Source of the DNA: Eledone cirrhosa
Taxonomy: Eukaryota
Direction of reading: 5' to 3'
Length of the DNA stretch: 64,000 nucleotides
Assembly (NCBI GenBank): GCA_964016885.1
Contig: OZ024742.1
Coordinates: 213,404,001-213,468,000 of the forward strand
This document shows positions 32,757 through 57,834 of the stretch, one piece after another. The number at the start of each line of letters is the position of its first letter. Position 1 is the stretch's first letter. The position numbers and the translations under genes were made by a program. The notes beneath the pieces are model-generated. The model ran no database searches. It saw only the letters and a list, made by a program, of their open reading frames with translations, and was not told the origin of the DNA.

Positions 32757-32798
32757 ATGAAGTCAACAGGTTATTATTCACTTCGTTTATTCATAATC

Positions 32799-33360: not shown

Positions 33361-33495
33361 GAAGGGATATTTAATTTGTTGGAAATACGACAAATATAAA
33401 TATTTATAACTGATTCAGAGCACTCGTCAGATTTCTGGAGTAAATATTCAATGATATTAAATAAATGGAAACTATATTTATAAAACCATATTTAT

Positions 33496-33552
33496 CCTAT
33501 TATATATATTTCAAGGGTACCAAAAAACTTTGGTACGCTTTCATCAGATAAA
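33496..33552 (-). ncRNA. Type-I hammerhead ribozyme motif
   Basis: Minus strand tttat-CTGATGA-aagcgtaccaaa(gttt)tttggtaccctt-GAAA-tatata-TA-atagg. Confidence 0.7.
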
Positions 33553-33873
33553 GTACAAAGAGTGTTTTATAAATTTTGACATACCCAAGAAAATCATACC
33601 TTATCAGTTGAATTTTCATGCAAGAAAATCCAACTGATAAGGTATGATTTCCTTGGTTCAGCGGACTTGTGAGATACCAAACCCAGCATGAGTCCATTGA
33701 AGTGTGTCAGACGGAGAGTAGCTGATGACCAGTGTGGCAGCAAATATTGACCAGAATTTATGATGACGTAGAAAAACAACAGCCAATGGCAAAACAAGAG
33801 TGGAAGATGTTTTTTGAAGGTGTTTTTTTGAAGCTAACACCCCAGTGAGAAAATTTGCTCCGAAAGCATTGCA

Positions 33874-33963
33874 TGTGTCCGAAGAACCCGCAGTTATAGA
33901 ATCAGGCAGAGCCATACAATGATCATGATTCGAGCTATATGCCGGCGAAACAATTGTAACACG
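33874..33963 (+). ncRNA. Variant hammerhead (CCGAAGA core, extended stem II)
   Basis: tgtgt-CCGAAGA-(61 nt)-GAAA-CAATTG-TA-acacg. Confidence 0.55.
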
Positions 33964-34094
33964 CAATAAACTGAGTCTAGATGCATCACTGATTTTTCGT
34001 TTTTTTATATTATATCACACTATGCTCTGTAAGAACATAGAGTGCTCAACTGGCATACCGCCTATTGAAGCACCATAGCTACCATTAAATACAC

Positions 34095-34176
<82 letters not shown>

Positions 34177-34221
34177 AATGAATAATAACAGGTAGACATC
34201 ATAAAAAGAATTTATTCCGAG

Positions 34222-34338
34222 TGCTTACAAATTTTTCAACAGTAGTTATACAGCCTAGTCATACTATGTGCAAATTGGTCATTATTTGTTTGCAGAAACT
34301 CAATTTTCAAGTGCTGCTTCTACCGTTTCCTCGGAGCA
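34222..34338 (-). ncRNA. Variant hammerhead (CCGAGGA core, extended stem II) in P1 3' end
   Basis: Minus strand tgct-CCGAGGA-aacggtag-(74 nt)-ctactgtt-GAAA-aatttg-TA-agca. Confidence 0.6.
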
Positions 34339-34661
34339 GAATGGTTAAAATGTAAATACCCTTGTATTTCTTAAAGGAAGTTATTGGGGACGATAGAGTA
34401 GAAAAGGAAGAGAGAAAGAAGGGGAGAGAGAGAGAGAGGGAGAGAGAGAGAGTAAGAAAGAGAGATAGAGAGGAGACAGACGAAAGCTACGAGAAGGGGA
34501 TACATCGAGTTCATAGTTGTAGCCTGAAAATCGCACTCAAGTATCTATAATGATAAGCAGGGTTTTGGCTTGTAGTGTGGAGGTGGGGGATATAGTTAGG
34601 AAGTAGTTATTGAGAGGAATTAGTTAGCGAGAAAGCGATGTTGTAGTCTCGGGTTCGAATG

Positions 34662-37000
34662 TTAAGTTATTTTATAGTGAGATAATTTAGCCTTCAGTTT
34701 GTGGTTGCAATATAACGATCGTTCGATTCTGTCATTTAGCACTTTGTTTTGGGATTTTAAGATATAAAAGAGTTCAAGATTGCATAATCTGCAGTACTTC
34801 AATCCACTCCGATATGCACTAGCGCTGGATAATTTATTCCATTTCAAGGTGAACTGCCGGTTGCATTCTTGGAGTTGCCAGGTCTTATTGGCGAGCGTAG
34901 TCACAAGACGGTGTTTAGGATGTTTAATCGAAAATCGATGACGAAACCAGCGAGGTTTAAAGGAGGTAGTGGTAGACCCGATGTAATACCATTTCTGGTC
35001 GTTCGATTCGACAGTGCTTTGATAAACAATGTTGGACTCTAGGCATTTATTCTTCAATGGGCATCTTTCGGGTAGGTGGCAGTTGCAGTTTTTGTTGTGG
35101 GTAGCAGGTATACCATGGATAGGTTGAGATAACAGTTCAGGTGGGTTGTGTAATACCTGTCTCCCATTTGCTGGTTGGGAGGCTGATATTACATTATGCT
35201 CATCTGTTACTAAAATATTTTGTTTTGTAGTGTTGTTTAATAATTGCTTTAAGTTAAATTTATTTATGTATGTTTCAAGGTTTGGTGCAGTGGAGTATGA
35301 TAGCTTAATAGTCTTAGAGTTTAGAATCTTACTGTATTTATGGGAACTAGGGAAATGGTTGTTAATTAACTTAAAGAATGAAAGAGATAGTTTTGTACTT
35401 ATCGAAGGGATTATACCAGATATACTTTCTACAACGTAATTTATTTGAGTCTGGTGATGATTTTCTATTATTAGTATGTCTGGTGGTACTGCGTGTGTGC
35501 GCTTGTATTTCTGTACCCCGGTTACATATTCTTTGATTTCGTGTGTAGCTATGTGTGTTATGAAGATTCTTATCAATGTATTCTATTTTATCCCGGTGGT
35601 CTGCTTTCCTTAATGCGTTATTATAGTATTCAGCATGTTCACTGAAAATCTCAGAGTTAGACGATAGGCGCGAGATTCTGAGCGAAATACTACGGGGAAC
35701 CGATTTGATCATGGAAAGTGGGTGGTTTGAGTTAAAATTGATATAGGTAAGGTTCTCATTTATCTTGTGGAAGGGTCGTATCAGTCCGGTATTTAAATTA
35801 AGAGTTACGTCTAGAAAATTTACCACTTTAAGATTGTATTCGTACGTTATTTTTAGACCCAGTTCATTGAAAGATTTTCTAATGATTTTCCGTAGCTTTT
35901 CAAGATTTTGGTTATTTAAGTTATTAACTAATAAAAGTGCGTCATCTCTATATATTCCCCCCTGTAGATTACTAAATGTTCCATGTAGTATGTGGGCAAT
36001 GTAAATTCCCACAAGATCCGTGACCTCCGCTGAGTCGTTAGAGCCCATGGTGATGTCGAAGTTTGTGGGTCTGTCCCTACGTTCCCAGTAGCAGTTATCA
36101 AACTTGATAATAGTTTTCCTAGCCTCTAGAATAATATTAATTTCGTCCTCCGTTAGGTCGGAATTGACCTTGGCAAACGATAGGGCCTTACGTAAAGTAC
36201 TGTGTGAGATTGAAGAGTAGTATTCGTCTATGTCGAATTGTATAAACTTAGACTTACTCTTGTTCTTAACGTTATTAAACCAGCGAATTGCTTCGCTAGT
36301 GTTACCCCATAATTTAATTTCTATTTTCTTTTTCACTTGAGTAATTACGTTGTTAGGTATATGTTTGTTAATTTTTCCTATGTCTGATTTAGAAGGGCAT
36401 ATAAGTCTAATCTTAGGGTTAGAATCAATATTTATCTTATGGTCCTTCAGGTTAAAGGTGAGGGTTGCAGGTATAATCGGCTCGGGTCTATCGTCTATCT
36501 TGAGATTCTTCACTACTTTATATGCTTCGTTGTTAATGTTCGTTAGTGTAGTTTCACTCGTTTTTCTATATTTCTTATGTAGTTCTTTGCCTATTAAGCT
36601 GTTGTATGTATCGATATCCATGGTATACACGTTAGAGGTCTTATCAGCTTTCACAACAATCCCATTGGTATTTTGCAGCCTTCGGAGTAGTGCTTTCATG
36701 TTGTTCTGCAGCTTATTACTTCTATGTTTGGTAAACTTGATATTCATTGTCATATTCATCAAGTCTTGTTCGAAAGCATCGAGATGGGGATTTGTGGATG
36801 GGTTTTTACATGATTTAAAAGCCATATGATTCATTGATTGATTCAGACGAGTGACTAGCGTGTGCCTTATCGAAATGGAAAGCCTTCCATCGTACACGCC
36901 GAATAAAGTCATTATTGCGTTGTATCATACCAAGAATGTATTCCCTTTTGTTAGGTATAGGGATGTTTTTAAGTGACATACCTATATGATGTCTTTCCAT
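34662..37000 (-). pseudogene. PLE RT-GIY-YIG ORF, two frameshifts
   Basis: ORF pieces 36815-37000, 35371-36912 and 34662-35576 join into one PLE protein. Confidence 0.88.
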
Positions 37001-38322
37001 ATTACTGCCGTATGTCAGTGTGGTTGCTCAACTGTGCAGGAGGCGATTATTAGGTTATGCAAGAAATGCTTAGGATTTTCCTGAATGCAGTAATGGTTAA
37101 TTACTACACTAGATATATATATATATTAATTACTACACACACTATATATATATATATATATATATAGGAACCAGTAAGACCCCGACAGCTGAGCTCAAGC
37201 CGTTTCGACGGCTAATTCTGGACTAAATGAAAATTTATCCTGGTATTTAAATAGCCGATCTTCTCAAGGGGTAATTCCATATATGGTCAAAGTGATTGTC
37301 AAAAATCAGTAGTAATTCTGTGGTTGCAAATTAGTAGGGGAGATGGTGGCTAAACCTGCCAGTAGGAGAAAGAGGGCATGAGGTCAAAGAAGATACAGGG
37401 GGAGGGGGGGGGGAGTCGGACGGTAGGTAGAACAATGGGGGGTAGAAATAGGAAAGAAAAAATACTGAGAGTGAAGAAAAGCAAATAAGTGTAAAGAAAA
37501 AAGTAAAGTAAATTAAATTCTACGACCTAGGTGTCAGGCTATGGTTAGGCTAGAATAAAATAAAGAAAGAAAGAAAGAAGTAAAGAAATAAATAAATAAA
37601 TAAATAACGAAATAAGTAAAAGAACTAGGTGGGACGAAATAGGCAAGGACCCTTTTAAGAGGTATAAGTACGTAAATGATACGGTGACGGGTCAACAAAA
37701 GGGGCCAAAATACTAAAGAGACTACCACGAAATAAACAATAAAGGCTTCCATCCCGGGCCAGCAACGACCCAGTGCAGCAAAGTGAACTTGTACGAGATA
37801 ATAATTCTGAGTCCCGAGAAAAATATATACTAATGCTAACTCTAAAAGATCTAAAACAAGCTACATGAAGGTTCGTACGAAATAAAGGTAGAATGCGGAG
37901 AAATAAATTCAGAATCCACCCCGCCCAGAAGAAAAGCGAAGCAAGAAATACTGAAACGAAAAAATAAGGCATAAGTGCCACTAAGAAATATAGAGGGCAC
38001 AGAGAATAGTGGGAGCGGTCGGAAAAAGGGGGCAAGTATCCGGGGTCTAAGCCAACTGCTATAAAGGGCGGAGTCCGCCAAATCTATCATAGACTAGGGG
38101 AGGGGGTGGTGGGGGTACTAAGGCTACATGGGGCCAAAGGGCAGCCTCGGGTGGGCGAGAAAAGACGCCGACAAAGGAGAAGAGCTGGGGTAGAAGGACA
38201 AAGGAGAGAGGGGGGAAGGAAATAAAGGAAGTGATAAAAGAATACAAAGAAGATCTTACGTCTTCCTTGGCAAGCAGGGATACCCATTGCAAAATCGGCA
38301 AGTGGGGTGTTATAGCCCTAGT

Positions 38323-40468
38323 CTACCCCCCCGGGTCATTATGGGGTTTGAGGGCGAGGTAAGTCCTACGCAATCTATGTTTACATGCAGTAACCAGTTC
38401 ATCTTTCTTGTTTAGGAGTTGGTCCGTCGAAAACAGCATTTGTAAAGTTTCCTCCGAGCATAAATTGCACGGACGGCGTCCTCCCGTGTAAGAATTGGCT
38501 CTGGACAGTAATCTCCAAGTGAGATCATAGGTGATGTTGTTGTCCTTGAGGTCCCATATGTGGCCCGAAAGTGTAGTGGCGTGACGCCGGGCCGGGTTTC
38601 GGAAGGTATGTCTATGTTGGTATAGCCGGGTCTTGAAGTCACATGCGGTAAGTCCTATATAGGCTTTGTTGGAGGTATCCGTCCTCACGTTGCACTGGTA
38701 GATCACATTACGGTCTCTGCATCTATTGTCGAGTGGGCAAATAGATCTATCCGGGCAGTTACACCTCCTGGTCGGTTCTCCACTGCTATTTAGGTTATTT
38801 CTGCCATCGGGGTTGAGTTTTTTGTTGTTAGAGGAGACGATGTTTTGTGCGAAGTTTGGTGTAGTGCTGTAAGAGAGTTTGATGGTATTTTTGTTAATTA
38901 TGTTGTGGTAGCGGTGTTGTAATGGGAAGTGTTTTTCAATGAGCCTAAAGAATAGTTTCCCGATGGGAGTAGTCACCTCTGCGTTGTGGGGAGGATTGAA
39001 CCATGTTACATTGCGTGAGCGGCGGTGTCTCCTGCTGGTTCCGCTAATGGGAGCTGGACAGTAGGATATTTCCTCCCGGAAACCACTCCGCTTGAGGGCC
39101 TGGTTGTAATAAGGCGCATGTTCATCGAATATCCGCTCATTAGCTGACAAACGGGATATGCGGAGGGAGATGTTTTTGACCAGGTTGTTTGTGATGTTCC
39201 TAGGATGGTTTGATCGGCGGTGGATGTAGTGCAGATTGTCATTAGGTTTCCTGTATGGGTAGTACAGGTCGTTTTCGAGGTCGAGGGTCACGTCCAGGAA
39301 GTTTACTCGGGTCAGGGACGTTTGTAGGGTTATTTTAAATCCCCAGTCGCGGAAGAATCTGATTAATTGTTTCCGGACCCGATCTGTACTACTGGGGTTG
39401 TACCCTTTAAGGGTAAGGAGCCCATCATCACGGTACAATCCACCACCGAATGCAGGAAACATATCAGTGAGTTTGGCTATTAGGAATAATCCTATAAGAT
39501 CAGTGACCTCCGCCGAATCCGTGGCGCCCATGCTGACGTCGAAGGGTGAGTCGGGAGCTCTTTTTATCCATTTAGAGTCGTCAAAGAGTAAGACTGTCTT
39601 CCTGGATGATTTTTCTTTCCTGGTCGGTGATGGGCACGAGTGTTTCGGCGAAGTCCAAGGCGGCAGTAAGTAGCGGTAAGGTGATTGAAGCATAGTAGCT
39701 CTCTATGTCGAACTGTATGAATTTAGTTTCTCGTTTATCCTCCATATTGCTGAACCAGGAGATTACTTCCTGGGTGTTGATCCATAGGCTAAGTCGGGTG
39801 TGTTGCTTGACTTTTGGTATCACGCGGTCTAGGATTTTTTTGCTGATTCTCCCTATGTCGGACTTCGTTGGGTTAATAAGCCCAATAGAGGGTTTACGGT
39901 CAAAATCGGATTTATGGTCCTTCAGTGTGAAGTATGGTGTCCGTGGGTCTAGAGGTTCCGTGCGGTCGGCGACCCCGAGGCTGGAGGTGATTTGTTGTCC
40001 ATCTCGATTTATGTCCTCGATGCAAGAGTGGTTGGCCTTTTTATAGGTGGAGTTTAGGCTGCTCTTGATCAGTGTGTGGTATCTGTCAGGGTTGACAAAG
40101 TACAGGTTCCCAGTTTTATCCGAATGCACCATGATGTCAATTGTGTTATCATACTCTGTTAAGTTGCTACGGAGTGTTTGTAGGAATCGGTTGTGTCTGG
40201 GTTTAAATTTAATGTTCTTGACCAGTCGGAAGAGGTCATTCTCGAAGAGTGCGAGCAAGGGGTTCAGGGGCGGAGATTTGTAGGTAATAAATCCGAATCT
40301 CTCCTTGGTGCCGAAGTCTTGGTTGTCGCAATATCTGTCATAGAAGAAAGTTCTCCATCTAAGTCTTTTCGCAAATAGATCGATTTTTTGCGTGAGCATC
40401 CGAAGGTAAAGTTTTTTCGGTGGGATTAGGATGTTCTTGGTAGAGAAGTCAATGTTGTGTTTTCGCAT
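38323..40468 (-). pseudogene. PLE RT-GIY-YIG ORF with one frameshift near 39600
   Basis: MRKHNIDFS...QFDIESYY / VSMGA...LYRDDGL...FLDVTL...CNCPDRSICPLDNRC...NVIY...YIGLT...CNLC. Confidence 0.9.
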
Positions 40469-41225
40469 GGTGCGGGTGAAATGAATTGAGCTTAGCGGAA
40501 AAGTCTGGATACGGCGTGGTAGGGTCGGAAAGTGCTCTACTACGGGAGTAGGAGCTAGATAACGAAGGAAATGTGGTAAGGAACCAGGTGGACCATAACG
40601 CACCAAAGTACTCAATACTTGAGGTAGTAGAGTGGGTAATAGAAACCAGTAAGACCCCGACAGCTGAGCTCAAGCCGTTTCGACGGCTAATTCTGGACTA
40701 AATGAAAATTTATCCTGGTATTTAAATAGCCGAACTTCTCAAGGGGTAATTCCATATATGGTCAAAGTGATTGTCAAAAATCAGTAGTAATTCTGTGGTT
40801 GCAAATTAGTAGGGGAGATGGTGGCTAAACCTGCCAGTAGGAGAAAGAGGGCATGAGGTCAAAGAAGATACAGGGGGGGGGGGGAGTCGGAACGGTAGGT
40901 AGAACAATGGGGGGTAGAAATAGGAAAGAAAAAATACTGAGAGTGAAGAAAAGCAAATAAGTGTAAAGAAAAAAGTAAAGTAAATTAAATTCTACGACCT
41001 AGGTGTCAGGCTATTGTTAGGCTAGAATAAAATAAAGAAAGAAAGAAAGAAGTAAAGAAATAAATAAATAAATAACTAACGAAATAAGTAAAAGAACTAG
41101 GTGGGACGGAATAGGCAAGGACCCTTTTAAGAGTTATAAGTACGTAAATGATACGGTGACGGGTCAACAAAAGGGGCCAAAATACTAAAGAGACTACCAC
41201 GAAATAAACAATAAAGGCTTCCATC

Positions 41226-41982
41226 CCGGGAGGAAATATCCTACTGTCCAGCTCCCATTAGCGGAACCAGCAGGAGACACCGCCGCTCACGCAATGTAAC
41301 ATGGTTCAATCCTCCCCACAACGCAGAGGTGACTACTCCCATCGGGAAACTATTCTTTAGGCTCATTGAAAAACACCTCCCATTACAACACCGCTACCAC
41401 AACATAATTAACAAAAATACCATCAAACTCTCTTACAGCACTACACCAAACTTCGCACAAAACATCGTCTCCTCTAACAACAAAAAACTCAACCCCGATG
41501 GCAGAAATAACCTAAATAGCAGTGGAGAACCGACCAGGAGGTGTAACTGCCCGGATAGATCTATTTGCCCACTCGACAATAGATGCAGAGACCGTAATGT
41601 GATCTACCAGTGCAACGTGAGGACGGATACCTCCAACAAAGCCTATATAGGACTTACCGCATGTGACTTCAAGACCCGGCTATACCAACATAGACATACC
41701 TTCCGAAACCCGGCCCGGCGTCACGCCACTACACTTTCGGGCCACATAAGGGACCTCAAGGACAACAACATCACCTATGATCTCACTTGGAGATTACTGT
41801 CCAGAGCCAATTCTTACACGGGAGGACGCCGTCCGTGCAATTTATGCTCGGAGGAAACTTTACAAATGCTGTTTTCGACGGACCAACTCCTAAACAAGAA
41901 AGATGAACTGGTTACTGCATGTAAACATAGATTGCGTAGGACTTACCTCGCCCTCAAACCCCATAATGACCCGGGGGGGTAG
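41226..41982 (+). pseudogene. Inverted duplicate of the P2 GIY-YIG region
   Basis: The 217-aa ORF is nearly identical to the C-terminus of the 38323-39693 ORF. Confidence 0.9.
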
Positions 41983-43218
41983 ACTAGGGCTATAACACCC
42001 CACTTGCCGATTTTGCAATGGGTAACCCCTGCTTGCCAAGGAAGACGTAAGATCTTCTTTGTATTCTTTTATCACTTCCTTTATTTCCTTCCCCCCTCTC
42101 TCCTTTGTCCTTCTACCCCAGCTCTTCTCCTTTGTCGGCGTCTTTTCTTGCCCACCCGAGGCTGCCCTTTGGCCCCATGTAGCCTTAGTACCCCCACCAC
42201 CCCCTCCCCTAGTCTATGATAGATTTGGCGGACTCCGCCCTTTATAGCAGTTGGCTTAGACCCCGGATACTTGCCCCCTTTTTCCGACCGCTCCCACTAT
42301 TCTCTGTGCCCTCTATATTTCTTAGTGGCACTTATGCCTTATTTTTTCGTTTCAGTATTTCTTGCTTCGCTTTTCTTCTGGGCGGGGTGGATTCTGAATT
42401 TATTTCTCCGTATTCTACCTTTATTTCGTACGAACCTTCATGTAGCTTGTTTTAGATCTTTTAGAGTTAGCATTAGTATATATTTTTCTCGGGACTCAGA
42501 ATTATTATCTCGTACAAGTTCACTTTGCTGCACTGGGTCGTTGCTGGCCCGGGATGGAAGCCTTTATTGTTTATTTCGTGGTAGTCTCTTTAGTATTTTG
42601 GCCCCTTTTGTTGACCCGTCACCGTATCATTTACGTACTTATACCTCTTAAAAGGGTCCTTGCCTATTTCGTCCCACCTAGTTCTTTTACTTATTTCGTT
42701 ATTTATTTATTTATTTATTTCTTTACTTCTTTCTTTCTTTCTTTATTTTATTCTAGCCTAACAATAGCCTGACACCTAGGTCGTAGAATTTAATTTACTT
42801 TACTTTTTTCTTTACACTTATTTGCTTTTCTTCACTCTCAGTATTTTTTCTTTCCTATTTCTACCCCCCCCCCATTGTTCTACCTACCGTTCCGACTCCC
42901 CCCCCCCCTGTATCTTCTTTGACCTCATGCCCTCTTTCTCCTACTGGCAGGTTTAGCCACCATCTCCCCTACTAATTTGCAACCACAGAATTACTACTGA
43001 TTTTTGACAATCACTTTGACCATATATGGAATTACCCCTTGAGAAGATCGGCTATTTAAATACCAGGATAAATTTTCATTTAGTCCAGAATTAGCCGTCG
43101 AAACGGCTTGAGCTCAGCTGTCGGGGTCTTACTGGTTCCTATTACCCACTCTACTACCTCAAGTATTGAGTACTTTGGTGTGTTATGGTCCACCTGGTTC
43201 CTTACCACATTTCCTTCG

Positions 43219-43311
<93 letters not shown>

Positions 43312-43330
43312 CATATATATATATATATAC

Positions 43331-44425
43331 AAAATTAAGATAAATCAAAATGAATTTAATCTAAATCAAAATTATGGGTGTCATGCCAGAAAGGCATGCA
43401 CCATATCACCCGCAAAATAAGCTCTAAGATTCTAACGAATACGTCCGAGCATTTTATAACAACTAGAAATTGATTAACATATAAATAAACATGAATAATC
43501 ACAGGAGATAATTTTTACAAGTGTGTAAGCACACATAGCTAGGTAGGTAACTAAATAAAGTTAACTAGAACTTCAAAAATAGATACCTTATAATATGATT
43601 AATCTTCCCTGTATATATTCCACTAAAGAAATATATTTCACCAATTAATCGAATGGTAAACCACGGATGCCGATACTTGGATTTTCAACAAGGAAGAAGT
43701 CCAGCGATCTATGTTTACGCATCAAGTTCAAATCACCGACTGGCCAGTAACACGTGCTGTATCTACTAGAAATACACACATCACACCAGCTTCGTCCCAG
43801 TGGCGTGAATAGAGTTATCGACAACTAGAAACAGCAGTCAAGTCCTTTCAACAGAGTTAGCTCTACAATTAAGGAGCCGTATTTATATATCTATATCCAA
43901 AATTAAGATAAATCAAAATGAATTTAATCTAAATCAAAATTATGGGTGTCATGCCAGAAAGGCATGCGCCATATCACCCGCAAAATAAGCTCTAAGATTA
44001 TAACAAATAGGTCCGAGCATTTTATAACAACTAGAAATTGATTAACATATAAATAAACATGAATAATCACAGGAGATAATTTTAACAAGTGTGTGGTGGG
44101 TAGATCGGGGGTAGAGGGAGAAGGAAACAGGCGTCCAAGCGGGGAGAGCGGAAGGTGGTGTGTGTGTATGTGTGGATGTGAGTGTGAGAGTTTGGGGAAG
44201 AACGAGATTCCATGTTCGGGTAATAGGAAAACCAGTGTGTACATGGGGTGGGGTGTAAATCAGTGTGTGTGCGTGTGGATGGAGTGGTGTCGGAGGGGGT
44301 GGGGGAGAGATGGCGGGCGGAGGCCGTATGTGTATGTGAGGATAAGCACGTGTGTGTGTTTGTGTGGTGTGAATACGTGGCAATGTATGGTTGCGTGTGT
44401 GCGAAAATAGTGTAAGTGTTTGTGT

Positions 44426-44466
<41 letters not shown>

Positions 44467-46955
44467 CCTGAATGTTCCTGAATGTATGGACAGATGGTGA
44501 AAAAATCCGAGTATATAAAGGTGGATGTTTGCAGCGTATGACCAGTGGTGTAGGATCCGTGGAATGGTGCGGAGGAAGTAGGAGATTTACGGGGTGCGCG
44601 CGCAACAGGAAGTGGTCAAGAAGGTTAAGGCAGGCGGTGGAGAAGGCGGGGAGCAGGATGCAAGAGAGAGGAGATAAGCAGTTAGGAGGATGACAGACAG
44701 GCGAGTGATAATGGGCAGGGGTGGTCTGTATGTGTGTGTGGAATGTGTGTATGTGTGTGCGGAGGTGAGGTGGACAGGGGTGGAGGTGGGTTAGTGTGAA
44801 CAGTTGAGGGAGAGGGCGGCGGTGTGTGTGCGGGGGTTGTGTGTATATTAGTGGAGGTGTTAGTAGAATGTGTGTGAGGAGAGTGAGGGGAGGTAGTATG
44901 GGGGAGAGAGAGGCGCTAGGTACAGTATGAGTGAGTGTAATATACTGGTGTGTGTGCGTGTTTGGGTATGAGTGTGTGTGTGTGTGGTAGGGTGGGTGTT
45001 AGTATTATTAGTGGTGGGGGGTCGAATACGGGTGTATGAGTGGGGGTTAGTGGTGGTAATGCGGGCGTGGGGTGGGTTGTACTTCGGTGTGTGCGTGGGT
45101 GTGAGTAAGTGTATGTATGCTGGTGTGTGTGTGGTGAGGTGGAACGTGGGTTGGAGGATGTTTAGTATTATTAGTGGTGGGGTGGTCGGATGTGGATGTG
45201 TAGGTGGGAGATAGTGGTGGTGGTTGGGTGTGTGAATAGTGTGAGTGAGTGTATATATATATATGTACTGGTGTGTGTGAGCACGTTGAGGGTGTGGGTA
45301 CGTGTGTGATAGGGGAGGGGGAGGGGTTTGTTAGTATTATTAGTTGCGGGGTGGACCAAGGGGGTGGGAGTGGCTGGAAGTGGAGGGGACGGTGAATCTC
45401 TGGAGTGTTTTCGTGGTGTTAGTAGGGTGTGTGTGTAGGGGAGGGGGAGGGGGACGGTCGAAGGCTACAGGAAGAGGGGTGGTGAGTTCAGGCCAGGGGT
45501 GTGTGGGTCTGTAGGGTGAAGATGGTGTGTTGTTCGGCCCTAAAGCGGGTTTCGGGGTCCCATGGCATTCGATCAGGCCACAGACGGTGAGGTTGTTAGC
45601 GGAGTGTTCAGGGGAACCAAAGTGGCGGGCGATGGGGGAACTCCCGCCGAGACGAATATCTGGGAGGTGCTCCGTGAACCGATACGCCAGGCGACGTCCG
45701 GAAGTCGATAGATGATGTTGGAGGAGGTGCAGCGGAAGGCATGCCGAACAGAGAGAGAGGGCGTTGGGACCCTAGAAGGTGGTGGTGTTGGTAATGTGGG
45801 GGCAGGTGTGGCAACGGGGTTTGGAGCAGGGAAGGGAACGTTGGGACGCGTTAGGGAGCTGCGGACGAGGAAGTTGCGGAGGTTGCGCACGCGTTTGAAG
45901 GAGGGGAGGGTGGGGATGGTAAGAAGGGGGAGGTGGAGGGGTCGGAGTGGATGCGTCGGAAGAGGCGGGGGATGGTGCGGGAGGGGTACGGTTGGGGGGG
46001 GGGGGGGGGGGTACGGTGGGTGGGGGAGCGGGAGCGTGGGGTGAGGGTGGTGCAGCGGTGCGAATGAGGCCGGCGTCGACTAGGGAGGGGGTAACCTCTC
46101 CGGATGAAATGGCTGACTAGAGACAAGGCCTGAGTCTCGAAGTCAGCATCTCGGCTGCAGAGCGGCGGATCTGGAGGAGTTGGGGGTAGGGAATGGAGTA
46201 TTTAGTGTGTGTAGGGTGGGAGGAGGTGAAGTCGAGGTAGGGGTGGGAGTCGGTGGGTTTGAAGAAGGCGGAGGTGACGAGGGAGCGGTGGGAGGGGTCG
46301 ATGGCGACAGAGATGTCCAAGGCGTGGACGTGGGTGGTGGAGATAGAGGTGGTTTAGTGGGGGGAGGGATGGAAGGAGCAGAAGAAGAAGAGAAAGGAGT
46401 CGAGCTGTTCTCGGGTGAGGGTCCGATGCAGTCGTCAATATAACGACCGTACAGTTTTTGGCCTGTGGTCGGGGGAGGAGCAAATGTCAAGGTAGTGCCG
46501 GAGGGCGCGTAGGCCGTCGGCATGGGAGATGACGGTGTAAAGGGACTTAATGTTTAGGGTGAAGAGAAGAGGGTGTGGGCCGGGTGGGAAGTTGAGGGAG
46601 TCAAAAAGGCGAAGGGCGTGATTGGTGTCGGAGATGTGGGAGGTGATGAGTGGGCGAGGATGGAGTCGAGGTGTTGGATGGTGGAGGAAACTTATTGTTG
46701 GTAGAGGGGGTGGGGTCGGAAAAAAGGGGGCGGTAGAAGAGAGGATTGCGGAGCTGCCTGAGGGCTTCGGCCGTGTAGAGGTCGGTGCTCCACACAACCA
46801 AAGCGCCTCCCTTGCCCTCCGGTTTGATGACGATGTCGTCGCGGTTACGGAGGGAGCGGAGAGCGAGGAGTTCGACCCGTGAGATGTTATACCGTTTGGA
46901 GCGGCGGCGGAAATCGAAGTGATTTACTGCGCTACGACAGGCGTCAACGAACACA
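43331..46955 (-). mobile_element. Degenerate Penelope-like element P3 (Neptune-like) with duplicated terminal repeat
   Basis: DIVIKPEGKGGALVVW, IKSLYTVI, GRYIDD, FKPTDSHPYLDFTSSHP, CTSSNIIY, ..PPGLN; direct repeat about 43331-43526 / 43899-44094; long CA-rich 3' UTR. Confidence 0.8.
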
Positions 46956-47249
46956 CATGTGTGTGTGTGTGTGAGTTTTAGACTCCCATGACTAATTCTC
47001 AAATAGACGAGATGTGAAAGGACATGCATTACAAACGGTAATCATGTTTGTTCCCCGCCCAGGAATATTTTCAGGTGCTGCAGCCATAGTGCATGTTTAT
47101 GCACCATCAATTGCGAAACACTGAGCTCTCCTTCTCTTCTAAAACTCCACATTCCTTCTAGTTATCATTGTTTGTTTCTTTCTTTCCCTATTTCCTTTAT
47201 CACCTCAACAGTAACAACAACATTATTATTATTGTTGTTATTATTATTA

Positions 47250-47475
47250 TTAGGGTGGTGGGTTGGACGAATCGGTAGGGCGTCGGATACCCTGCTTCGT
47301 GGTATAGAGTTATGGCCCTTTACGTTCTGAGTTCAAATCCCGCCGAGATTAGCTTTGTCTTTCCTCCTTACGAGGTTGATAAAATAAAGCAGCAGCAATG
47401 CACTTGGGTCAATTTAATCGACTTTCTCCTCCCCTTCAACTTGCTGGCCTTGTGCCAAAAGTAGAAACAATTACT
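47250..47475 (+). mobile_element. SINE (Nin/Deu-like), full length
   Basis: Matches the family consensus from head to gtagaaacaatt. Confidence 0.8.
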
Positions 47476-47819
47476 ATTAGCATCTCCGCGTGTGACCACA
47501 CCACTCTATGATTTAACTTCATCCTGTCAGCGTTTTGTAAAAGTCGGAGAGATCGGCTTCACATACTTTTGTTTACATTTAAAAGCTGTGATTCAGCTAT
47601 CTAATTTAAAAGGGTAAGGGCCGTCACCGTCCGTAGGCTTAATGGTTCAAATTGCCTTAATGTTTCAAATAGTCGGTATCTGGGAGATACAAGTGTCGTA
47701 GCGGCCCATGGCAACTCCCCTTTCCATCTTTTAGCGTCTTCACTTTATTTTATAAGCTATTTCCTAGCATCTCTGGGCATGAGCATAGCACTCTTTATAT
47801 TAGCATTATCAATAGTGGC

Positions 47820-47821
47820 AA

Positions 47822-47889
<68 letters not shown>
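47820..47889. repeat. (AGT)n microsatellite
   Basis: Directly visible. Confidence 0.97.
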
Positions 47890-48344
47890 TAACATGTCGG
47901 CCTCTTTGTCACATTAGCAAGCTGTCATTTTTCAACGCTAATAACACGCTAACTCATGTTCTAAAGACTCCGTCATAAATAAAAGAAAACAAACCAACAC
48001 GAGCAACAAAACAAAACAAAATGGTGACAATGACGTCGACGACGATCATATCTACGGTGATGATGACAACGACTGCAGCAACAATAGCAGCAAAACTGAC
48101 AAAAAAGGTTTCTAATGTCATTAAACTGACAGTTCATGGAATGCCGATACATTAAGAACAAATGCGACACAGTCTTTGTGAGAAATCGACCTGTTTCTAC
48201 CTCAGTACTGAAACTCGTGTATATTCAGCAGATTGGGTGGTGAGATAAAACCTTAATATCAATAATATATAATATTAAAAGAATATTGAACATATAAATA
48301 CAAACAAATAATGCGAAAAGAGAAATGGTTAAAGATAAATGGAA

Positions 48345-48960
48345 TAATTGTTTCTACTTTAGGCACAAGGCCAGCAAATACCCAGCGCATTACTGGTACT
48401 TTATTTTATCGACCCCGTAAGGATGAAAGGCAAAGTCAACCTCGGCAGGATGTGAACTCAGATCGTAAAGGGACGTAACTATGCTGGAAAGCATGGCGTC
48501 CGACCCTCTACTGATACTGCTAATCCAATGGAATAATGGTTTGTGGTTTAGGCACGAGGCCAACAATTTCGGGGGAGGGAAAAGTTGAATCAACACCAGT
48601 GCATTACTGGTATATTATTTTACCGAATGTAAAGAGACGTAACTATATGCTGCAAAAGGACGTAAGTACATGTCCGACGCTCTACGATACTGCCAATCTA
48701 TCGCCCTAAGATAATGGCTTCTGATAAAAGCATAAAGCCGATGTAAGCATTAGGGGAGTGGAAAGTCGATTAAATCGACCCTCGTGCATTACTAATACTT
48801 TATTTTATCGACCCCCGTAAGGAGGAAAGACAAAGCTAACCTCGGCGAGATTTGAGCTTAGATCGTAAAGGGTCGTAACTCTATGCTACAAAGTATCGTG
48901 TCCGACGCTCTGCCGATACCGGTAATAATTGTTTCTACATTTGGCACATTGTTTCTACAT
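48345..48960 (-). mobile_element. Tandem cluster of about 3 antisense SINEs
   Basis: Three consecutive family copies in the same orientation. Confidence 0.75.
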
Positions 48961-49267
48961 TAGGACCTAAGACGTTGGGTATATTAGGAATATATAATAC
49001 ACAGGGAAACAAGAAATAATGGGGGTAATATCCTAAAACATTAGCAAATACCCAGGAGTTATACATAGTATAAAGAAAATTACTGTTTGGCATAAAACAC
49101 GTACATAATGTTAAGTACTTTCAATATAATAGAAAACACACATATACACACGCAAACGAATAAAAATAACAATAAAGCATAACAGTGCACTAAACAAAAG
49201 CGCTCAGAGATGTGTTTAGTTGTGCAATGAAATCAAACAATACTAATAAGGCTTCAGGAACAATAAC

Positions 49268-49590
49268 GATTTATCTATTAGCCACACGGAGCTCACATTA
49301 AGAAACATTAAGGACGGCACAGGACGGTATAGTGTGGAGTTTTGCGTGTAAAAGAAATTAAACGAAAACAACGTAAACCGTAAAATTCAAACAAAAAACA
49401 AAATCCCCAATAGGGGGAAACTTCCGAGTATCACTCGTAGAAAAAGCCCACAAAAAATCACGGTTACCTTAACAGCTAAGGAAAGTGCCATCTCCCAGTT
49501 GTCCTCATCCAATCTACAGGCTAGTACTCAGAGCAGTACCATTCACACAGGCCATGCTCGCCACTCTCACCTACCTTTCAAAATGGTTGC
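49268..49590 (-). mobile_element. Tx1 3'-end remnant
   Basis: Minus strand encodes ...VRVASMACVNGTALSTSL*, has the CCCCTATTGGGG hairpin and ends GTGGCTAATAGATAAATC. Confidence 0.75.
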
Positions 49591-49799
49591 AAGGTAGCAC
49601 GATGGAATCAGTAATAGCCAGATCCATCCTACACGCGAGAGGTGTTGAAAAATAAAACTACGAGTCAGCAATACTCGACCTCACTGTCTTCGCTTGACCC
49701 AGAACTGCATCTCAGTGAAATAGATGAACTGCGGAAAGACGTGTCTGAGAGACAGTTACCACACTTGTTAACGGAGGACTGCAGCTCCGTTAAGGAGGT

Positions 49800-50430
49800 A
49801 GAGGACAGTCGATTAAGTCGACCCCAGTGCGTGACTGGTACTTTATTTTATCGACCTCGTAAGGATGAAAAGCAAAGCTAACTTCACAGGATTTGAACTC
49901 AGATCGTAAAGGGGCGTAACTCTATGCTGCAAAGCATGGTGTCCTACATTCAAGTGATACTGCCGATCCATCGCCTTAACAACAACAATGATAATATTAA
50001 TAATAATAATTGTTTGTACTTTTGGCACAAGGCCAGCAAATACCAGTACATTACTGGTACTTTATTTTATCGACCCCCGTAAGGATGAAAGGCAAAGTTA
50101 ACCAATAATAATTGTTTCTACTTTAGGCACAAGGCCAGCAATTAACCAGTATATTACTGGTACTTTATTTTATCGACCTCGTAAGGATGAAAGGCAAAGT
50201 TAACCTCGGCGGGATTTGAACTCAGACCGTAAAGGGAGGTAACTACGCTGGAAAGCATGTCCGACCCTCCATCGATACTGCCAATCCACCGAATAATAAT
50301 TTTGTTTCTACTTTTGGCACAAGGCCAGCAATTACCCAAATAATAATACTTTCTGATTTAGACACAAGGCCAGCTTTTTTTTGGGGGGGGGGAGTCAATT
50401 ACATCGATATGACACTTGACTGCTGCTTTA
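49800..50430 (-). mobile_element. Tandem cluster of about 5 antisense SINE copies/fragments separated by (AAT)n
   Basis: Repeated aataattgtttctacttt(t)ggcacaaggccagc starts. Confidence 0.75.
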
Positions 50431-50457
50431 TTGTTACAACTCAGGAAAGGTAGAGTT

Positions 50458-50680
50458 AATGATGATGATGAGGGTGATAATGAGGGGGAGGAAGAGGAGG
50501 ATGAGGAGCAGGATGAGGATGATGATGATGAGGAGGAGAAGGAGGAGGAGGAGGAGGAGGAGGAGGGGGAGAGGAGAGGGAGGAGGAGGAGGACGGCGAC
50601 AACGATGATAACTACGACGACGACAACGACGACAAAAACGACGACGACGACGGGGATGACCATGATGGCGACGACGATGA
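50458..50680. repeat. (GAT)/(GAG)/(ACG) low-complexity trinucleotide tract
   Basis: Directly visible; produces poly-D/E/T pseudo-ORFs. Confidence 0.9.
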
Positions 50681-51192
50681 AAATGGGGTTGATCATTTCT
50701 TTTTACTTTGATAATAATGAATTCTATATGCGAAAGCAAAAATAGAAAAAGAATTTGATTTTGAAAATTTTATGACAGATGTACAAAGTACGTGGGATGA
50801 AAAGCCAACGTGATAAACAATTCATAATCCACAGAGATATATTGAATGTATTTTATTATATAAACGAACATTTATGGAAATTTTATTACAAAATCAAGAG
50901 GAGCAGGCGGGTTTAGAATTCGATTTTGAACATATTCTATTGAAACACACACGCACGGACACACATTCACGCACGAAAGATATTTACTAAAGCATGCTTA
51001 TAGATATTTTTACTGGTTTTGTTAACACTGGGCGGTAGCCATAGTTGGGTATTGCTTTCCAAGGAATCATCATTACATCAACTTCAATGCATATTTTATC
51101 AATGTAGGGGTGGAATGGAAAAGCAAAGTCGCCATGAACATAACATAGTACCATATGATATATGTCTAATGCTCAAACACTTCTACACTTCT

Positions 51193-51229
<37 letters not shown>

Positions 51230-51233
<4 letters not shown>

Positions 51234-52090
51234 TCACGTCGGACGGTCTGTACCTTGATCGCTCATGAAATCCACCCAGCTTATGCTGACCGGATAACCA
51301 TGTTGCTTGTTTAATTTCCTATCTTCGGTTTGCCCTTATCCCTCTATGTTGTTTACTTGTCTCACTCGCTTTACGCGATTTACTTGTCCCAATAGCTTTT
51401 TTTAGTTATTGCTCGCACCAACCTGAGGTATATGATTTTTAATGCGATGAAATACCAATGATGGTTGGCAAATCACTGACGAGGGACTAATTTTTTCATA
51501 TGAAACCCATGTGCAACCACGCAGTATTCTTCTTTCTTCTCATGTTTTTTATACATATTTACCTCGGCTGCGTTTGTCTGTTTCTCTCTTACTGCTTCCC
51601 CGTTCTCTCTGTTTCTCTCACCTTCTTTCGCCCCCTCTGTCAGTAACACTTTCTCTCGACTGACCTCTTCCTTGCATTTCCACTCACTCACTCTCTGTTT
51701 AATCCCCTTCTCACTTCCTCCCGTTTGGCTAGTAGTGGGGTCTTTTCTTGCTCACATCTCACTCACGTCGGGCGGTCTGTATCTTGATCGCTCATGAAAT
51801 CCACCCAGTTTATGCTGACCGGATAACCATGTTGCTTGTTTATTTTCCTATATTCGGTTTGCCCTTATCCTTCTATGTTGTTTACTTGTCTCACTCGCTT
51901 TACGCGATTTACTTGTCCCAATAGCTTATTTTAGTTATTGCTCGCACCAACCTGAGGTATATGATTTTTAATGCGATGAAATATCAATGATGGTTGGCAA
52001 ATCACTGACGAGGGACTAATTTTTTCATATGTAACCCATGTGCAACCACGCAGTATTCTTCTTTCTTCTCATGTTTTTTGTTTTTTATAC
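51230..52090 (+). repeat. About 325-bp direct repeat (about 530-bp period) between (TA)n tracts; PLE pLTR/retrozyme-like
   Basis: 51230-51555 is nearly identical to 51760-52085; contains CTGACGA...GAAA. Confidence 0.85.
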
Positions 52091-52110
52091 ATATATATAT
52101 ATATATATAT

Positions 52111-52260
52111 AGGAACGAGTAGGACCCCGACGGCTGAGCTCAAGCTGTTTCGACGGCTAATTCTGGACTAAAAGTCGTTCCTATTACTCACTCTACTACC
52201 CTAAGTATTGAGTACTTTGGTGCGTTATGGCCCACCTGGTTCCTTACCACATTTCCTTCG

Positions 52261-52262
<2 letters not shown>
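52111..52262. mobile_element. 152-bp mini derivative of PLE P2 made of both termini
   Basis: Left part matches 37166-37228; right part matches 43135-43220; (TA)n on both sides. Confidence 0.85.
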
Positions 52263-52292
<30 letters not shown>

Positions 52293-52296
<4 letters not shown>

Positions 52297-52548
52297 CGTT
52301 TTTGAATTTGTTTTGCGAGATTTTCTTATCTGAAAACGTGTGTTGAAACAGATATTGTTAAACTTTGGGAGGATCATGTTGCCAATAATGCTGCCAGAAT
52401 GCGTTACGAAAGAGCTTTGACAATATATAAACAACCATCCGGTTATCGAACCAACTAACCACCCGGAAACTTATAATAAATTGAAGTGAAAATCAACAGG
52501 TGCGTGTGTTTTTATTGGCAGCATGACCCTCCCAAAGTATAACAATAT
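52293..52548. mobile_element. Family A inverted mini-insertion
   Basis: Antisense long end (52293-52388) joined to a sense copy starting inside the hammerhead (cgttacgaaagagctttgac). Confidence 0.75.
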
Positions 52549-52759
52549 ATATATATACATATATATATAACAAAAATTTGGATTTGATTTCTCGCTCTTA
52601 CATAGCTGGATACATTAGGGCAATAACCCTAAAACAACGTAGCCGATTGTTTCTCCATGCCACTGCTAGAACAAAAGGATAACGACGGTCATCTAAAAAA
52701 CATACCGTTATGAGGCTGTTTGCTTGCAAACGAATCGAATACTATTATTATTATTCGAT

Positions 52760-52950
52760 ACGGCGGGGGATTGGCAGTATCGGTGGAGAGTCGGACGCCA
52801 TGCTTTCCAGCATAGTTACGTCTCTTTACGGTCTGAGTTCAAATCCCGCCGAGGTTAACTTTACCTTTCATCCTTACGGGGTCGATAAAATAAAGTACCA
52901 GTAATGTACTGGGTAATTGATGGCCTTGTGCCGAAAGTAGAAACAATTAT
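52760..52950 (+). mobile_element. SINE (Nin/Deu-like) with probable TSD
   Basis: Family consensus; TTATTATTATTCGATAC occurs on both sides (about 52745-52761 and 52947-52963). Confidence 0.8.
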
Positions 52951-53572
52951 TATTATTCGATACCCCCCAACCACACACACACGCACACACACACATATAC
53001 ACACGCAACACACACATATATATATATATAGTTAACAGAGTTTTGTAGCTCGCTTAAAGCATTGTTGAATAGGAAACGCAAATTTAAATTTTTAAAACCG
53101 AACAATGCGTTAGAATGAACATTAAATCGCCAAGATAATAAAAGAATCTTACCTCAGCAAATTTAATGGTCCTAAATATTTTCGAGTTTAAAAAACCATT
53201 ATCAAGGGAATAACCCTATGAGAGAATGAAAAAAATCTATCGGATTGACTTGGTTGTTTGGAGAGCAGATTTAAGTTAAATGAAATGAAAAAAAAAAAAA
53301 AAAAAAAAATTCGAACGTGTGCGTTGTGAAATTTATGATAAATACATGTGTGCGTGAATGTAAGTGTGCTTAGTGGGATGTTTGTATGTGTGTGCATGAA
53401 TGTAAGTTTATGTAGTGAAAGGTGTGTGCGAATATGTATATAATAAAACGGGAAAAATATGTGTGCGATACATGTATGTGTGTGAGTCTAAGTGTGTTTT
53501 GCCTAGTGAAGATATAGATTTAATTTGAAAGAAAGAATGGAACTGGTCGCTGGGATGTTGGAATACAGGCTT

Positions 53573-54935
53573 TTAAATTAGCCATTCTGGTGCACTTCTT
53601 TCCATTCGATTATTGATCTTAGTTATTAATTGCTTGATTAAGAGGTTTTCCTTAATTCTCAGCGTGCCTATACTTCGTTCGGTAGCTAAGATTGTGGTGG
53701 TAATGTTGACCTGGTTTCCATATTTGATGATGTGTTTGTGGAAGGAAGAGGAGTTGGTGTTAACATGCTCTTTAATACGGAGATGTAACGGTCGAATAGT
53801 GCTGCCTATGTAAAATAGATTGTACTTGTTACATTCTGGCATGTATACTACGTAGGTACGTAGGCAACAATTAGTGTTGCGTATAGGGCAGTTGGCTAGG
53901 GTGCATCCCTTATCCTCATTGGAGGGTTTACTTGTGGAGAGGCATCTTCGCAGGGAAGATCCAGAGTGAGCTAGTTTGATATTGAGGCTCTCTCTTCTGG
54001 TTGATTTGCGTTTGGCGTTGGTGGTTTCTTCGCTGAGATGTGGGATCTTGAAGAAGCAACTGTTGTTTGGGTTGGTCCGATCTCTGGGTCTGGGGTTTCG
54101 TCGTGGAGTGGAGAAGGTAGCTGGGTAGCCGTTAATCTCTAGTACCTTGTGGAATTGTCTGATATGGGTGGCTCTGTTAGCAGTGTTGCTGCATCGGTTG
54201 CGTTTGCGAGCCATTTTGTTGAAGATATACCCTCTTTTAGAGCTGTTGAGGACAGATTTGTAATGAACAAACAGGACTCTGCTGGTGACTTTGCGGTAGA
54301 AATCGGTGTGGATTTCACCGCTATCAGAGATGTTCAGTCTGAAATCAAGTAGAGCGAAAAACCCGGAGTCGGTGGGATGTTTGATGCTGAACTTGATGTT
54401 GTCAGCATTGTTGAAAGATTCGAATATCTTGTTTGCATTCTCCTTGGTGGATGTAAGGATGGGTATATCATCCACATATCTAGTGAAGTGTCGCAGGAGC
54501 TGAGTACTCGGCGTTCAGGCCTGTTCATATATGAAATGGCCAGTAAACCCGAGAGGCTGGATCCTATGGGTAGTCCAGAGGTCTGTCCATGGGTAGTCCA
54601 GAGGTCTGTCCCAGGAAGTTGAAAGAGGCGTTGTTTACAATGATGGATAGGAGCTGGAGGTTGTCGGTGGTGATGAGGCCGAAACCATCCATGTCGCTGA
54701 AAGCGACACATTCAGTGAGTATGTCTACTGCCGGGAGTGTAGGTACCGATGTGTAGAGGGAAACTACACCTAGGCTAAAGGCGTACCTGATGGATTTGAG
54801 GGTGTCAAGTTCTAATTGGTTGAGTCGCTGGATGACAACATCCAAGCTGTAGACGTGGCCCGGGAAGGTTGTCAAAAGGGGCTTTAAAATCTTGGACAGA
54901 AGCCAAGAGATTATTTTGTCACGCTCTCTCAAAAT
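53573..54935 (-). pseudogene. Penelope-like element P4 RT-GIY-YIG fragment
   Basis: FSLGVVSLYTSVP, QTSGLPIGSSLSGLLA, MDDI, LLDF, CTLANCPI...C..YVVY...FYIGSTIRPLH.R..EH; frameshifted. Confidence 0.85.
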
Positions 54936-54939
54936 ATTA

Positions 54940-55520
54940 CCCCTCTCTCACTGAAACATCATACCTTTCTCACCCTCTCTATATACTACTACATGCCTCA
55001 CTCTCTCTTACTAAACCACCAAACTGTCTGTCACTCTCTATATCCCACTACATACCTCACTCTCTCACAATTTCCCTCTCACACTAGATCACCAAATCTA
55101 TTCCCTCTCTATATACCAACACATATCTCACGCTGTTTCACTCTCGTAATTCCCACTTTCTCATAAGCCCACCAAACTCTCTCCCCTTACTATATCCCAC
55201 TACATGCGTCACTCTCTATCGCTTTCACAATTACGCTTCTCTCACTATACCACAAAACTCTCTACCCCTTTCTATATCCTACTACATACCTCACACTCAC
55301 AATTCACCCTCTTTTAATAAACCACCAAACTTTATCCCGCTCTCTATATCCCGCTAGATCCTCACTCTCTCTCATAATTCCTCCTCTCTCACTAGACCAC
55401 CAATCAATCTCCCCCTCTCTATATCCCCTCTTTATATCCCACTACATACCTTACTCTCTCTCACAATTCACCCTCTCTCATTAGACCACCAAATCCTCTC
55501 TCCTTCTCTATATCCTACTA
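54940..55520. repeat. Degenerate minisatellite, about 65-70-bp unit, about 8 copies
   Basis: Recurring tatatcccactacatacctcactctctcacaatt...ccaccaaa motif. Confidence 0.75.
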
Positions 55521-55884
55521 CAATATGTTTTACTTTGAAACAACAAATGTTTTTATCTTCCGTAAAGAACGATAAAGTTCTCCACCCTCTCCCACCTTTT
55601 GAGCCTCTGGGGTGTGGCAGAGATCTTTTTTTTTGTGTTCTTTTGTGGAATTATTTGACAGGAATTTAAAATATGTGGTGGTGGAGGGTGGTGGTGTGAT
55701 GGTGTTGGTAGTAGTTTGGTGGTGGTGTTAGTGGTTGTGTAGTGGGTGGTAGTGGTGGTGGTAGTGGTGGTAGTGTGGTGTTTGTTTATTTTGAATGTAT
55801 CTATCTATAATCAGCTCCTGATTATTACTGGAATTCTATAAGAATCCAGCTTCTATAATTTTCGGTGGAAGCAGGGGAGTGCGT

Positions 55885-55926
55885 GGTTCTGATGAACGCC
55901 AACCAGCGCGAAACAGACTGTCAGCT
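55885..55926 (+). ncRNA. Type-I hammerhead ribozyme motif
   Basis: ggtt-CTGATGA-acgc(caacca)gcgc-GAAA-cagactg-TC-agct. Confidence 0.65.
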
Positions 55927-56050
55927 TCCCCCATTTCTTTCGCCGAAAAGAAGTAAGTGACATAGTCACTACTTTATAACTGATAGCGTATGGTCTTCTA
56001 AATGTTTTTAATTAAACATACGGTATATTGCCAAATATACTATACATACA

Positions 56051-56099
<49 letters not shown>

Positions 56100-56312
56100 T
56101 AACAAATTATCGTTATAGGTAATCCAGTTAGAGGTTGTGAGTACTCAGTATTGTTGATAGTTTTAACATACGGCGTTGTTTGACTCAACAAGAGGTTTCC
56201 TTAGTTAGGTAGCGAGTTCACAGGAATTCCTATGCAGGTTAATCTTGGAGTAATAATAGTGGAAGAGTGAAGAATAACAAGATCAACAGTACAAAAAGGG
56301 TTTTATTTACAG

Positions 56313-56417
56313 TATTAACAATTGTTTCATTGATTACTGTGTCTAAAAATTGCTAATCACTTGAAGTTGTGTCACTCAATTTTAAATACATGCATGCCTA
56401 ATCAAATCATCGGAATA
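56313..56417 (-). ncRNA. Variant hammerhead (CCGATGA core, extended stem II) in P5 3' end
   Basis: Minus strand tatt-CCGATGA-tttgatta-(62 nt)-taatcaat-GAAA-CAATTG-TT-aata. Confidence 0.6.
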
Positions 56418-57796: not shown

Positions 57797-57833
<37 letters not shown>

Positions 57834-57834
57834 A

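Follow-up and report, generated by a model that had tools for sequence, protein, structure and literature searches.

Whether a change at one near-invariant letter of the hammerhead core is decay in single copies or a state handed down through whole families is the question raised by a stretch of 64,000 nucleotides (nt) from Eledone cirrhosa (assembly GCA_964016885.1, contig OZ024742.1, positions 213,404,001 to 213,468,000, forward strand; hereafter, the window). Three hammerheads in the window, H1, H2, and H3, depart from the canonical core CUGANGA..GAAA..UH at U4 alone, where they have C (C4). We found that in the Penelope-like element (PLE) families that carry these motifs, C4 is mostly inherited by whole families rather than produced by decay. 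The parts of the three motifs are as follows.

33874-33963 (+): H1, hammerhead of type I; core CCGAAGA at 33879-33885, with C4 at 33880
33874-33878/33959-33963 (+): stem I of H1, 5 pairs
33886-33946 (+): helix II domain of H1, 61 nt between CCGANGA and GAAA
33950-33957 (+): palindromic helix III of H1; predicted cut between 33958 and 33959
34222-34338 (-): H2, hammerhead of type I; core at 34334-34328, with C4 at 34333; stem I of 4 pairs; helix II domain of 90 nt between CCGANGA and GAAA; predicted cut between 34226 and 34225
34233 (-): change in helix III of H2, private to the window copy; the family has helix III ACAUUUGU and a CUGA core
56313-56417 (-): H3, hammerhead of type I; core CCGAUGA at 56413-56407, with C4 at 56412; stem I of 4 pairs; helix II domain of 78 nt between CCGANGA and GAAA
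56325-56318 (-): palindromic helix III of H3; predicted cut between 56317 and 56316

An earlier note on this DNA had described the three motifs at these coordinates, with a pairing stem I in each, and both descriptions hold. The motifs are real and not chance matches: the fold descriptor found three sites in the window versus a single site in 200 dinucleotide shuffles taken together (mean, 0.005). The sequence AAAATTGAG, said to be common to two helix II inserts, occurs twice in the window, once in H2 and once in H3. Rfam misses the motifs, as had been suggested for standard descriptors, with no hammerhead family among the 116 Rfam matches (E<=10) for the whole window or among the 23 at the same threshold for the stretch 33400-34500. 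A model built from the H1 lineage scored H1 at 101.7 bits and H3 weakly at 21 bits, and did not find H2.

When the copies of each family were collected with exact patterns leaving position 4 free, C4 was fixed in the H1 family (68 C, 1 T, 1 A, and 1 G; n = 71), split between subfamilies in the H3 family (C in 37 and T in 37 copies, a manual count of the matches listed; n = 74), and a minority state in the H2 family, with 3 C and 97 T among the matches listed (100 of 109). Among 33 close H3 copies, a one-base insertion was common to all eight with U4, and U4 therefore marks a subfamily of the H3 family. The H2 copy of the window is also the only one of the aligned copies with AATTTG, all others having CATTTG. 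The contigs of a second sample, which is possibly close to the source and not independent, agree with the family at both H2 positions (34333, A; 34233, G) across nearly their whole depth, and with depth at the site they list no change at position 4 of H1. The earlier note had held C4 unlikely to be decay, which stands for H1 and for the genome counts given below; for H2, where C4 departs from a CUGA family, decay holds in part. A CUGA family consensus, which that note had set against its own proposal, was found for H2, for half of the H3 family, and not for H1. Among 33 representatives, position 4 did not evidently covary with either position 7 or position 17, and in the matches listed each of the four letters is found at position 7 after CCGA.

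The same states are abundant throughout the genome. We searched its 3.0 Gb with helix III fixed as ACAWTTGT-H, distinguishing a long class (50-100 nt between the core halves) from a short class (8-45 nt) and using reversed patterns as controls. The long class comprised 5,836 matches with C4 (control, 13) and 9,211 with U4 (control, 22), 15,047 together, as well as 868 with a purine at position 4 (control, 67) and 1,010 with G5A (control, 60). The short class comprised 15,198 C4 or U4 matches (control, 20), of which 6,295 had C4 (control, 12). In total, 12,131 of 30,245 matches had C4, versus 25 in the reversed controls; these are pattern matches, in which decayed copies are missed and some double counts and chance upstream hexamers are included; such hexamers are clearly common among the purine-4 and G5A matches listed. 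The counts for purine-4 and for G5A bound per-site decay near 6-7%. CpG decay at C4-G5 has G5A as its mirror product, and at ~7% at most, decay cannot convert the C4 and U4 classes into each other; the same two counts rule out both CpG decay as the origin of the U4 copies and U-to-C decay as the origin of C4. The C4 share was 39% of the long and 41% of the short matches. The traits are thus uncoupled, and a single subtype linking C4, a long helix II, and a 6-nt loop can be rejected; of the clade-specific variant that had been proposed, the lineage specificity of C4 remains and the linkage does not.

The helices were compared across 192 distinct motifs from 210 own-genome loci, grouped into 33 clusters at 80%; C4 was present in 10 of the 33 representatives, which is no frequency, the sample having been chosen by core type. 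In the first four pairs of stem I, 122 of 132 cells were paired, versus 47-51 when slid, although this count leans high because stem I pairing helped to pick the candidate cores. Helix II was not used in the selection, and its pairs 2-5 were paired in 98 of 120 cells, versus 45-48 when slid. The first position of helix II pairs in 10 of 30 and is often unpaired too in the available published Hydra rows. As regards a loop I-loop II tertiary contact, stem I pairing falls at pair 5 (12/33) and partly resumes at pair 6 (21/33), and no partner was identified in helix II. Within the H1 lineage (16 rows), 94.6% of the cells were paired and 11 of 21 pairs had changed on both sides, the lower long arm included, the structure tested having come partly from the consensus fold of the same alignment. 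Helices I and II therefore covary, as the earlier note had anticipated, and the three-way junction is supported.

What had been taken for a distinct 6-nt loop III proved to be C15.2-G16.2 plus a central A-U pair, that is, the 8-nt palindrome ACAAUUGU, which is the published Hydra form of helix III. Its computed energy is -6.4 kcal/mol as a duplex and +2.4 kcal/mol as a 2-bp (base pair) hairpin. Other families carry different perfect 8-nt palindromes in helix III, as the dimer form predicts. Helix II ranges from 11 to about 100 nt across families, and its lengthening looks genome-wide across families, as far as the sampled loci suggest. A long helix II (48-104 nt) also accompanies other helix III palindromes, all with U4, at 11 loci (L018, L027, L056, L067, L071, L090, L131, L140, L143, L169, and L175). 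In the window copy of H1, private changes weaken helix II (-15.4 kcal/mol, versus -22.6 kcal/mol in the sister copy L062).

By the coding marks of their families, H1, H2, and H3 all sit in the 3' repeats (pLTRs) of Hydra-clade PLEs; PLE termini had been proposed for two of the three loci, and the hosts hold while the number rises to three. The assignment uses motifs and visual agreement with the published reverse transcriptase (RT) alignment of Craig et al. (2021), in the available text of which DKT, YRDD, the CxC-x5-C linker, and the GIY-YIG endonuclease at the C terminus are marks of the Hydra clade (PMC8557442). The host features are listed below.

33660-34015 (+): host of H1, a 5'-truncated 356-nt 3' end (pLTR) assigned to a Hydra-clade PLE, with borders common to sister copies
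to about 34170 (+): optional tail of the H1 host, followed by (TA)n
34168-37115 (-): host of H2, a frameshifted PLE assigned to the Hydra clade; 3' end about 57 nt beyond the cut site
35371-36924 (-): RT of the H2 host, with DKT and YRDD
34662-35582 (-): linker and endonuclease of the H2 host, with CxC-x5-C-x5-C at 35087 and YIG
37048-37115 (-): 5' tail piece of the H2 host
56035-57687 (-): host of H3, a 5'-truncated PLE assigned to the Hydra clade; 3' end mainly at 56256, with a longer tail reaching 56035
57283-57669 (-): endonuclease remnant of the H3 host, with CxC-x5-C-x5-C at 57666; only the endonuclease part is kept
57681-57834 (+): inverted arm of the H3 host, a 5'-truncated pLTR piece with the 3' half of a hammerhead only and no CYGANGA

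DKT, in place of DKG, was found in 35371-36924, in the neighbouring element at 39581-40669, and in the copy L162, and the CxC-x5-C linker precedes the C-terminal GIY-YIG endonuclease at 35087 (-), at 57666 (-), and in L168. The N-terminal motif is RWR in the neighbouring element (39581-40669); RWK was not seen in the examined frames of the frameshifted H2 element, and the window copies of H1 and H3 are without the 5' part. Pfam searches with four Hydra open reading frame (ORF) pieces named none of them correctly and gave one sub-threshold PDZ match. The inverted arm beside the H3 host is the usual PLE arrangement and was seen in other copies too. A fuller copy of the H1 family, L168, has an inverted arm, a Hydra RT and endonuclease, a long microsatellite-rich 3' untranslated region (UTR) common to the copies L161 and L179, H1, and then (TA)n; this layout indicates that H1 is also a Hydra 3' end. 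This 3' UTR (L168:3900-7600) exceeds 2.5 kb and is rich in (TG)n and (TA)n, and those of sister families are about 400-800 nt. The coding Hydra PLE in L168 rules out H1 as a non-coding retrozyme. Nor do the three families have the layout of the animal non-LTR retrozymes (LTR, long terminal repeat), non-coding tandem repeats of 170-400 nt with a hammerhead in each; they are the 3' ends of coding PLEs. The usual end of an element is some 50-60 nt downstream of the predicted cut, and certain copies have a longer tail; (TA)n starts 50-60 nt or 130-220 nt beyond the cut site. In L162, a C4 hammerhead lies downstream of an open Hydra frame of 620 codons, and the C4 families were therefore recently mobile. 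A C4 group with a short helix (20 nt; e.g., L181-L210) is abundant and makes up most of the 6,295 short matches; no endonuclease was tied to its main cluster in 17 upstream stretches, and the group is perhaps non-autonomous, or else its 3' UTR is long.

On the reconstructed trees, position 4 switched between U and C repeatedly in this lineage. The endonuclease tree, with 14 labelled rows, requires five U/C changes, at least three of them forced, and one of its rows comes from an isolated copy with C4 in the H2 family. Three links between endonuclease and hammerhead, in clusters 6, 30, and some of 3, turned out to join neighbours that belong to different elements; this tree omits cluster 6, and its cluster 30 row is relabelled as the neighbour family. 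In the DNA trees, built with position 4 masked, the H1 lineage has one C4 clade nested among U4 relatives (support, 95), and five changes fall in the H3 lineage and two in the short group, some of them perhaps single-copy changes. For comparison with other organisms, we collected 97 foreign loci of Hydra type on contigs of metagenomes and genomes (80 retained out of 428 confirmed, and 17 more), with hammerheads at 70 of them and none in shuffles. Their distinct AC..GU-type motifs had U4 in 63 of 64 and C4 in one, with a helix II of 10-31 nt, and the viral contigs searched contained no relative. Sequence comparison thus points to the abundance of C4 and the long arm as special to this lineage among those examined. 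Three metagenome contigs of the foreign set, L230 and L214, L276, hold one U3-A8 core and two C4 cores, the second C4 core being of another helix III type.

As to what these motifs do, we consider it fairly probable that they are hammerheads which cut slowly and as dimers, probably with the help of a protein, and so process tandem PLE transcripts, and that C4 is tolerated and the long arm is a separate trait. The C4 motifs likely still self-cleave, slowly and in pairs. Helix III is too short for a hairpin, and two copies are therefore expected to pair via the 8-nt palindrome. In such a scheme, the two copies (both pLTRs of a tandem transcript, or two RNAs) would form a double hammerhead, which would cut after U16.1-H17, the predicted site. 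C4 would lower the cleavage rate and yet be tolerated; purine-4 and G5 changes have not multiplied to the same extent. The long helix II would be a conserved arm outside the core, neither the cause of nor a compensation for C4, and the element's own protein would probably help cleavage. In peach latent mosaic viroid, which Ambros and Flores reportedly studied in 1998, U4A and U4G are said to be inactive.

Several observations weigh against slow, paired cleavage. The lone motifs H1, H2, and H3 fold no better than shuffles (z 0.89, -0.06, and 0.25), so the case rests on comparison and not on energy. The H3-lineage RNAalifold consensus recovered the inner arm only (8 pairs, 6 with double changes), without stem I or the base of helix II. 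In its family state, helix III of H2 forms a weak duplex of -2.9 kcal/mol, and for only 6 of 30 representatives did a crude calculation favour the fixed double hammerhead over a pair of monomer ensembles. Genomic copies do not stop at the cut site, which makes cut RNA a less than obvious template, and mutants of an anole PLE hammerhead did not hinder insertion in vitro in the available text of Frangieh 2024 (PMC11167929).

In the alternative that ranks next, cleavage is dispensable in this lineage and the fold is kept for structure. The unhindered insertion of the anole mutants speaks for it, and that study adds that no reads ended at the cut site (PMC11167929); Naiad PLEs thrive without canonical hammerheads according to the available part of PMC8557442, the copies of the elements described here run 50-60 nt or more beyond the cut site, and their long arm keeps invariant internal letters within lineages. 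A dispensable core, however, fits poorly with 868 purine-4 and 1,010 G5A matches (many with chance upstream hexamers) versus the 15,047 long C4 or U4 matches, with a tolerated change that is the very one published as tolerated by an active ribozyme (PMC3088659, as far as its available text goes), and with a helix III that is palindromic throughout its sequence changes. We regard this alternative as unlikely.

Selection for C4 as a brake seems quite unlikely as well. Here, a modelled C4-G16.2 pair would extend a C4-G5-A6/U-U-G helix stacked on stem I and lock the single RNA off until palindrome pairing or the element's protein opened the helix, leaving more uncut template for reverse transcription. 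The RNAalifold consensus of the H1 lineage has this helix, with the 4-16.2 pair as C-G in 8 of the 16 rows and as U-G in the other 8, and the computed probability of the 4-16.2 pair across 30 representatives is 0.34 with C and 0.017 with U. C4 arose several times and persists through nested families, and U at position 7 is present in 15 of the 28 representatives whose central letter is A and in 0 of the 5 where it is U (p 0.049; kinship ignored). However, the U4 families would gain pairing too (0.29), which makes the effect generic and shows no selection; the 13 foreign motifs with a helix III ending in UUGU all keep U4, and the U4 and C4 subfamilies of the H3 family were both amplified (37 and 37). 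A broader form, in which C4 as an adaptive brake and the helix II of 50-100 nt as a protein docking platform would together make a protein-gated hammerhead balancing cut and uncut template, is in our judgement rather improbable. That dead copies came to have C4 through decay or chance, and that the fold is an artefact of the pattern, is highly improbable and largely refuted by the family counts, for although it holds in part for H2, with C4 in 3 of 100 among the matches listed and loop III changed too, and although lone motifs fold no better than shuffles, 68 of 71 H1 copies have C4, the genome holds 12,131 such matches versus 25 reversed, per-site decay is bounded near 6-7%, and the helices covary.

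The window contains other hammerhead-like sequences. At 37179-37272 (-), the neighbouring Hydra PLE (ORF pieces at 38323-40669) ends in a U3-A8 hammerhead with 54 nt in its helix II domain and 6 bp in helix III, the minimum-energy fold of which is a three-way junction. Nine further CUGA hammerhead-like sites were found at 33495-33552 (-), 2629-2702 (-), 2812-2883 (+), 33077-33162 (+), 32792-32853 (-), 19239-19317 (-), 2259-2317 (+), 3600-3631 (-), and 9158-9186 (-); several have other palindromic helix III strands, some are decayed, and those at 2629 and 2812 form an inverted pair. At 8895-8955 (-), only the 3' half remains of a hammerhead of the C4 family with a 95-nt helix (cluster 2), its 5' side cut off. 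Long near-perfect hairpins at 33583-33658 and 8507-8669 gave sub-threshold microRNA matches and are likely inverted arms of mobile elements.

The sister families described here have different letters at one near-invariant core position and helix II domains of different length. Both the C4 and U4 forms have spread to thousands of copies, and they offer natural pairs for testing whether cleavage rate matters. A search restricted to CUGA cores with a short helix II would overlook the majority of such motifs in the genome, the short U4 class accounting for only ~8,900 of the 30,245 matches. Compared with the single new subtype first proposed, this is a lesser claim on a larger scale.

Among known systems, the closest are the Hydra hammerheads of Craig et al. 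2021 (PMC8557442, File S2), which, in the available portion, share the type I fold in the 3' pLTR, the short AC..GU helix III, and, often, an unpaired position on each side of the helix II base (U-U in many rows); their elements share DKT, the CxC-x5-C linker, the C-terminal GIY-YIG, and the (TA)n targets. In that portion, all 26 Hydra rows have CUGA and a helix II domain of <= about 26 nt, whereas ~40% of the matches described here have C4 and half have 50-100 nt. The PLE-X1 hammerheads of spike moss, marked as deviating in the same file, are alike in a loop II of about 30-35 nt and a domain of >50 nt and unlike in belonging to another PLE clade with a CUGA core and another helix III. The PLE hammerheads of Cervera and de la Pena 2014 (PMC4209133) likewise have a short stem I and a palindromic helix III and cleave weakly as dimers, and weak, dimer-dependent cleavage is expected here too; in the available text, their helix II has 6-8 bp, no U4C families are reported, and a U3-A8 core variant accounts for about 1,300 matches in Schistosoma. 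The dimer model of hammerheads with a palindromic helix III also appears in the accessible part of a review (PMC6765202), and in that of Frangieh 2024 (PMC11167929) one PLE hammerhead needs the PLE protein. U4C families are not reported in the available text of PMC7229834, bioRxiv 2026.07.22.740005, or PMC3907566, and we found no report of C4 families in PLEs in the literature searched, although Lunse et al. 2017 and the 2014/2020 supplements could contain such cores. The change itself is published: a natural U4C variant cleaves far less in vitro and yet supports viroid infection (Perreault 2011, PMC3088659, available text, citing Ambros and Flores 1998). The core change is the same, in one viroid variant there and in thousands of copies in several retrotransposon families here, and what is new is its repeated fixation in amplifying retrotransposon families, together with a helix II of up to ~100 nt.

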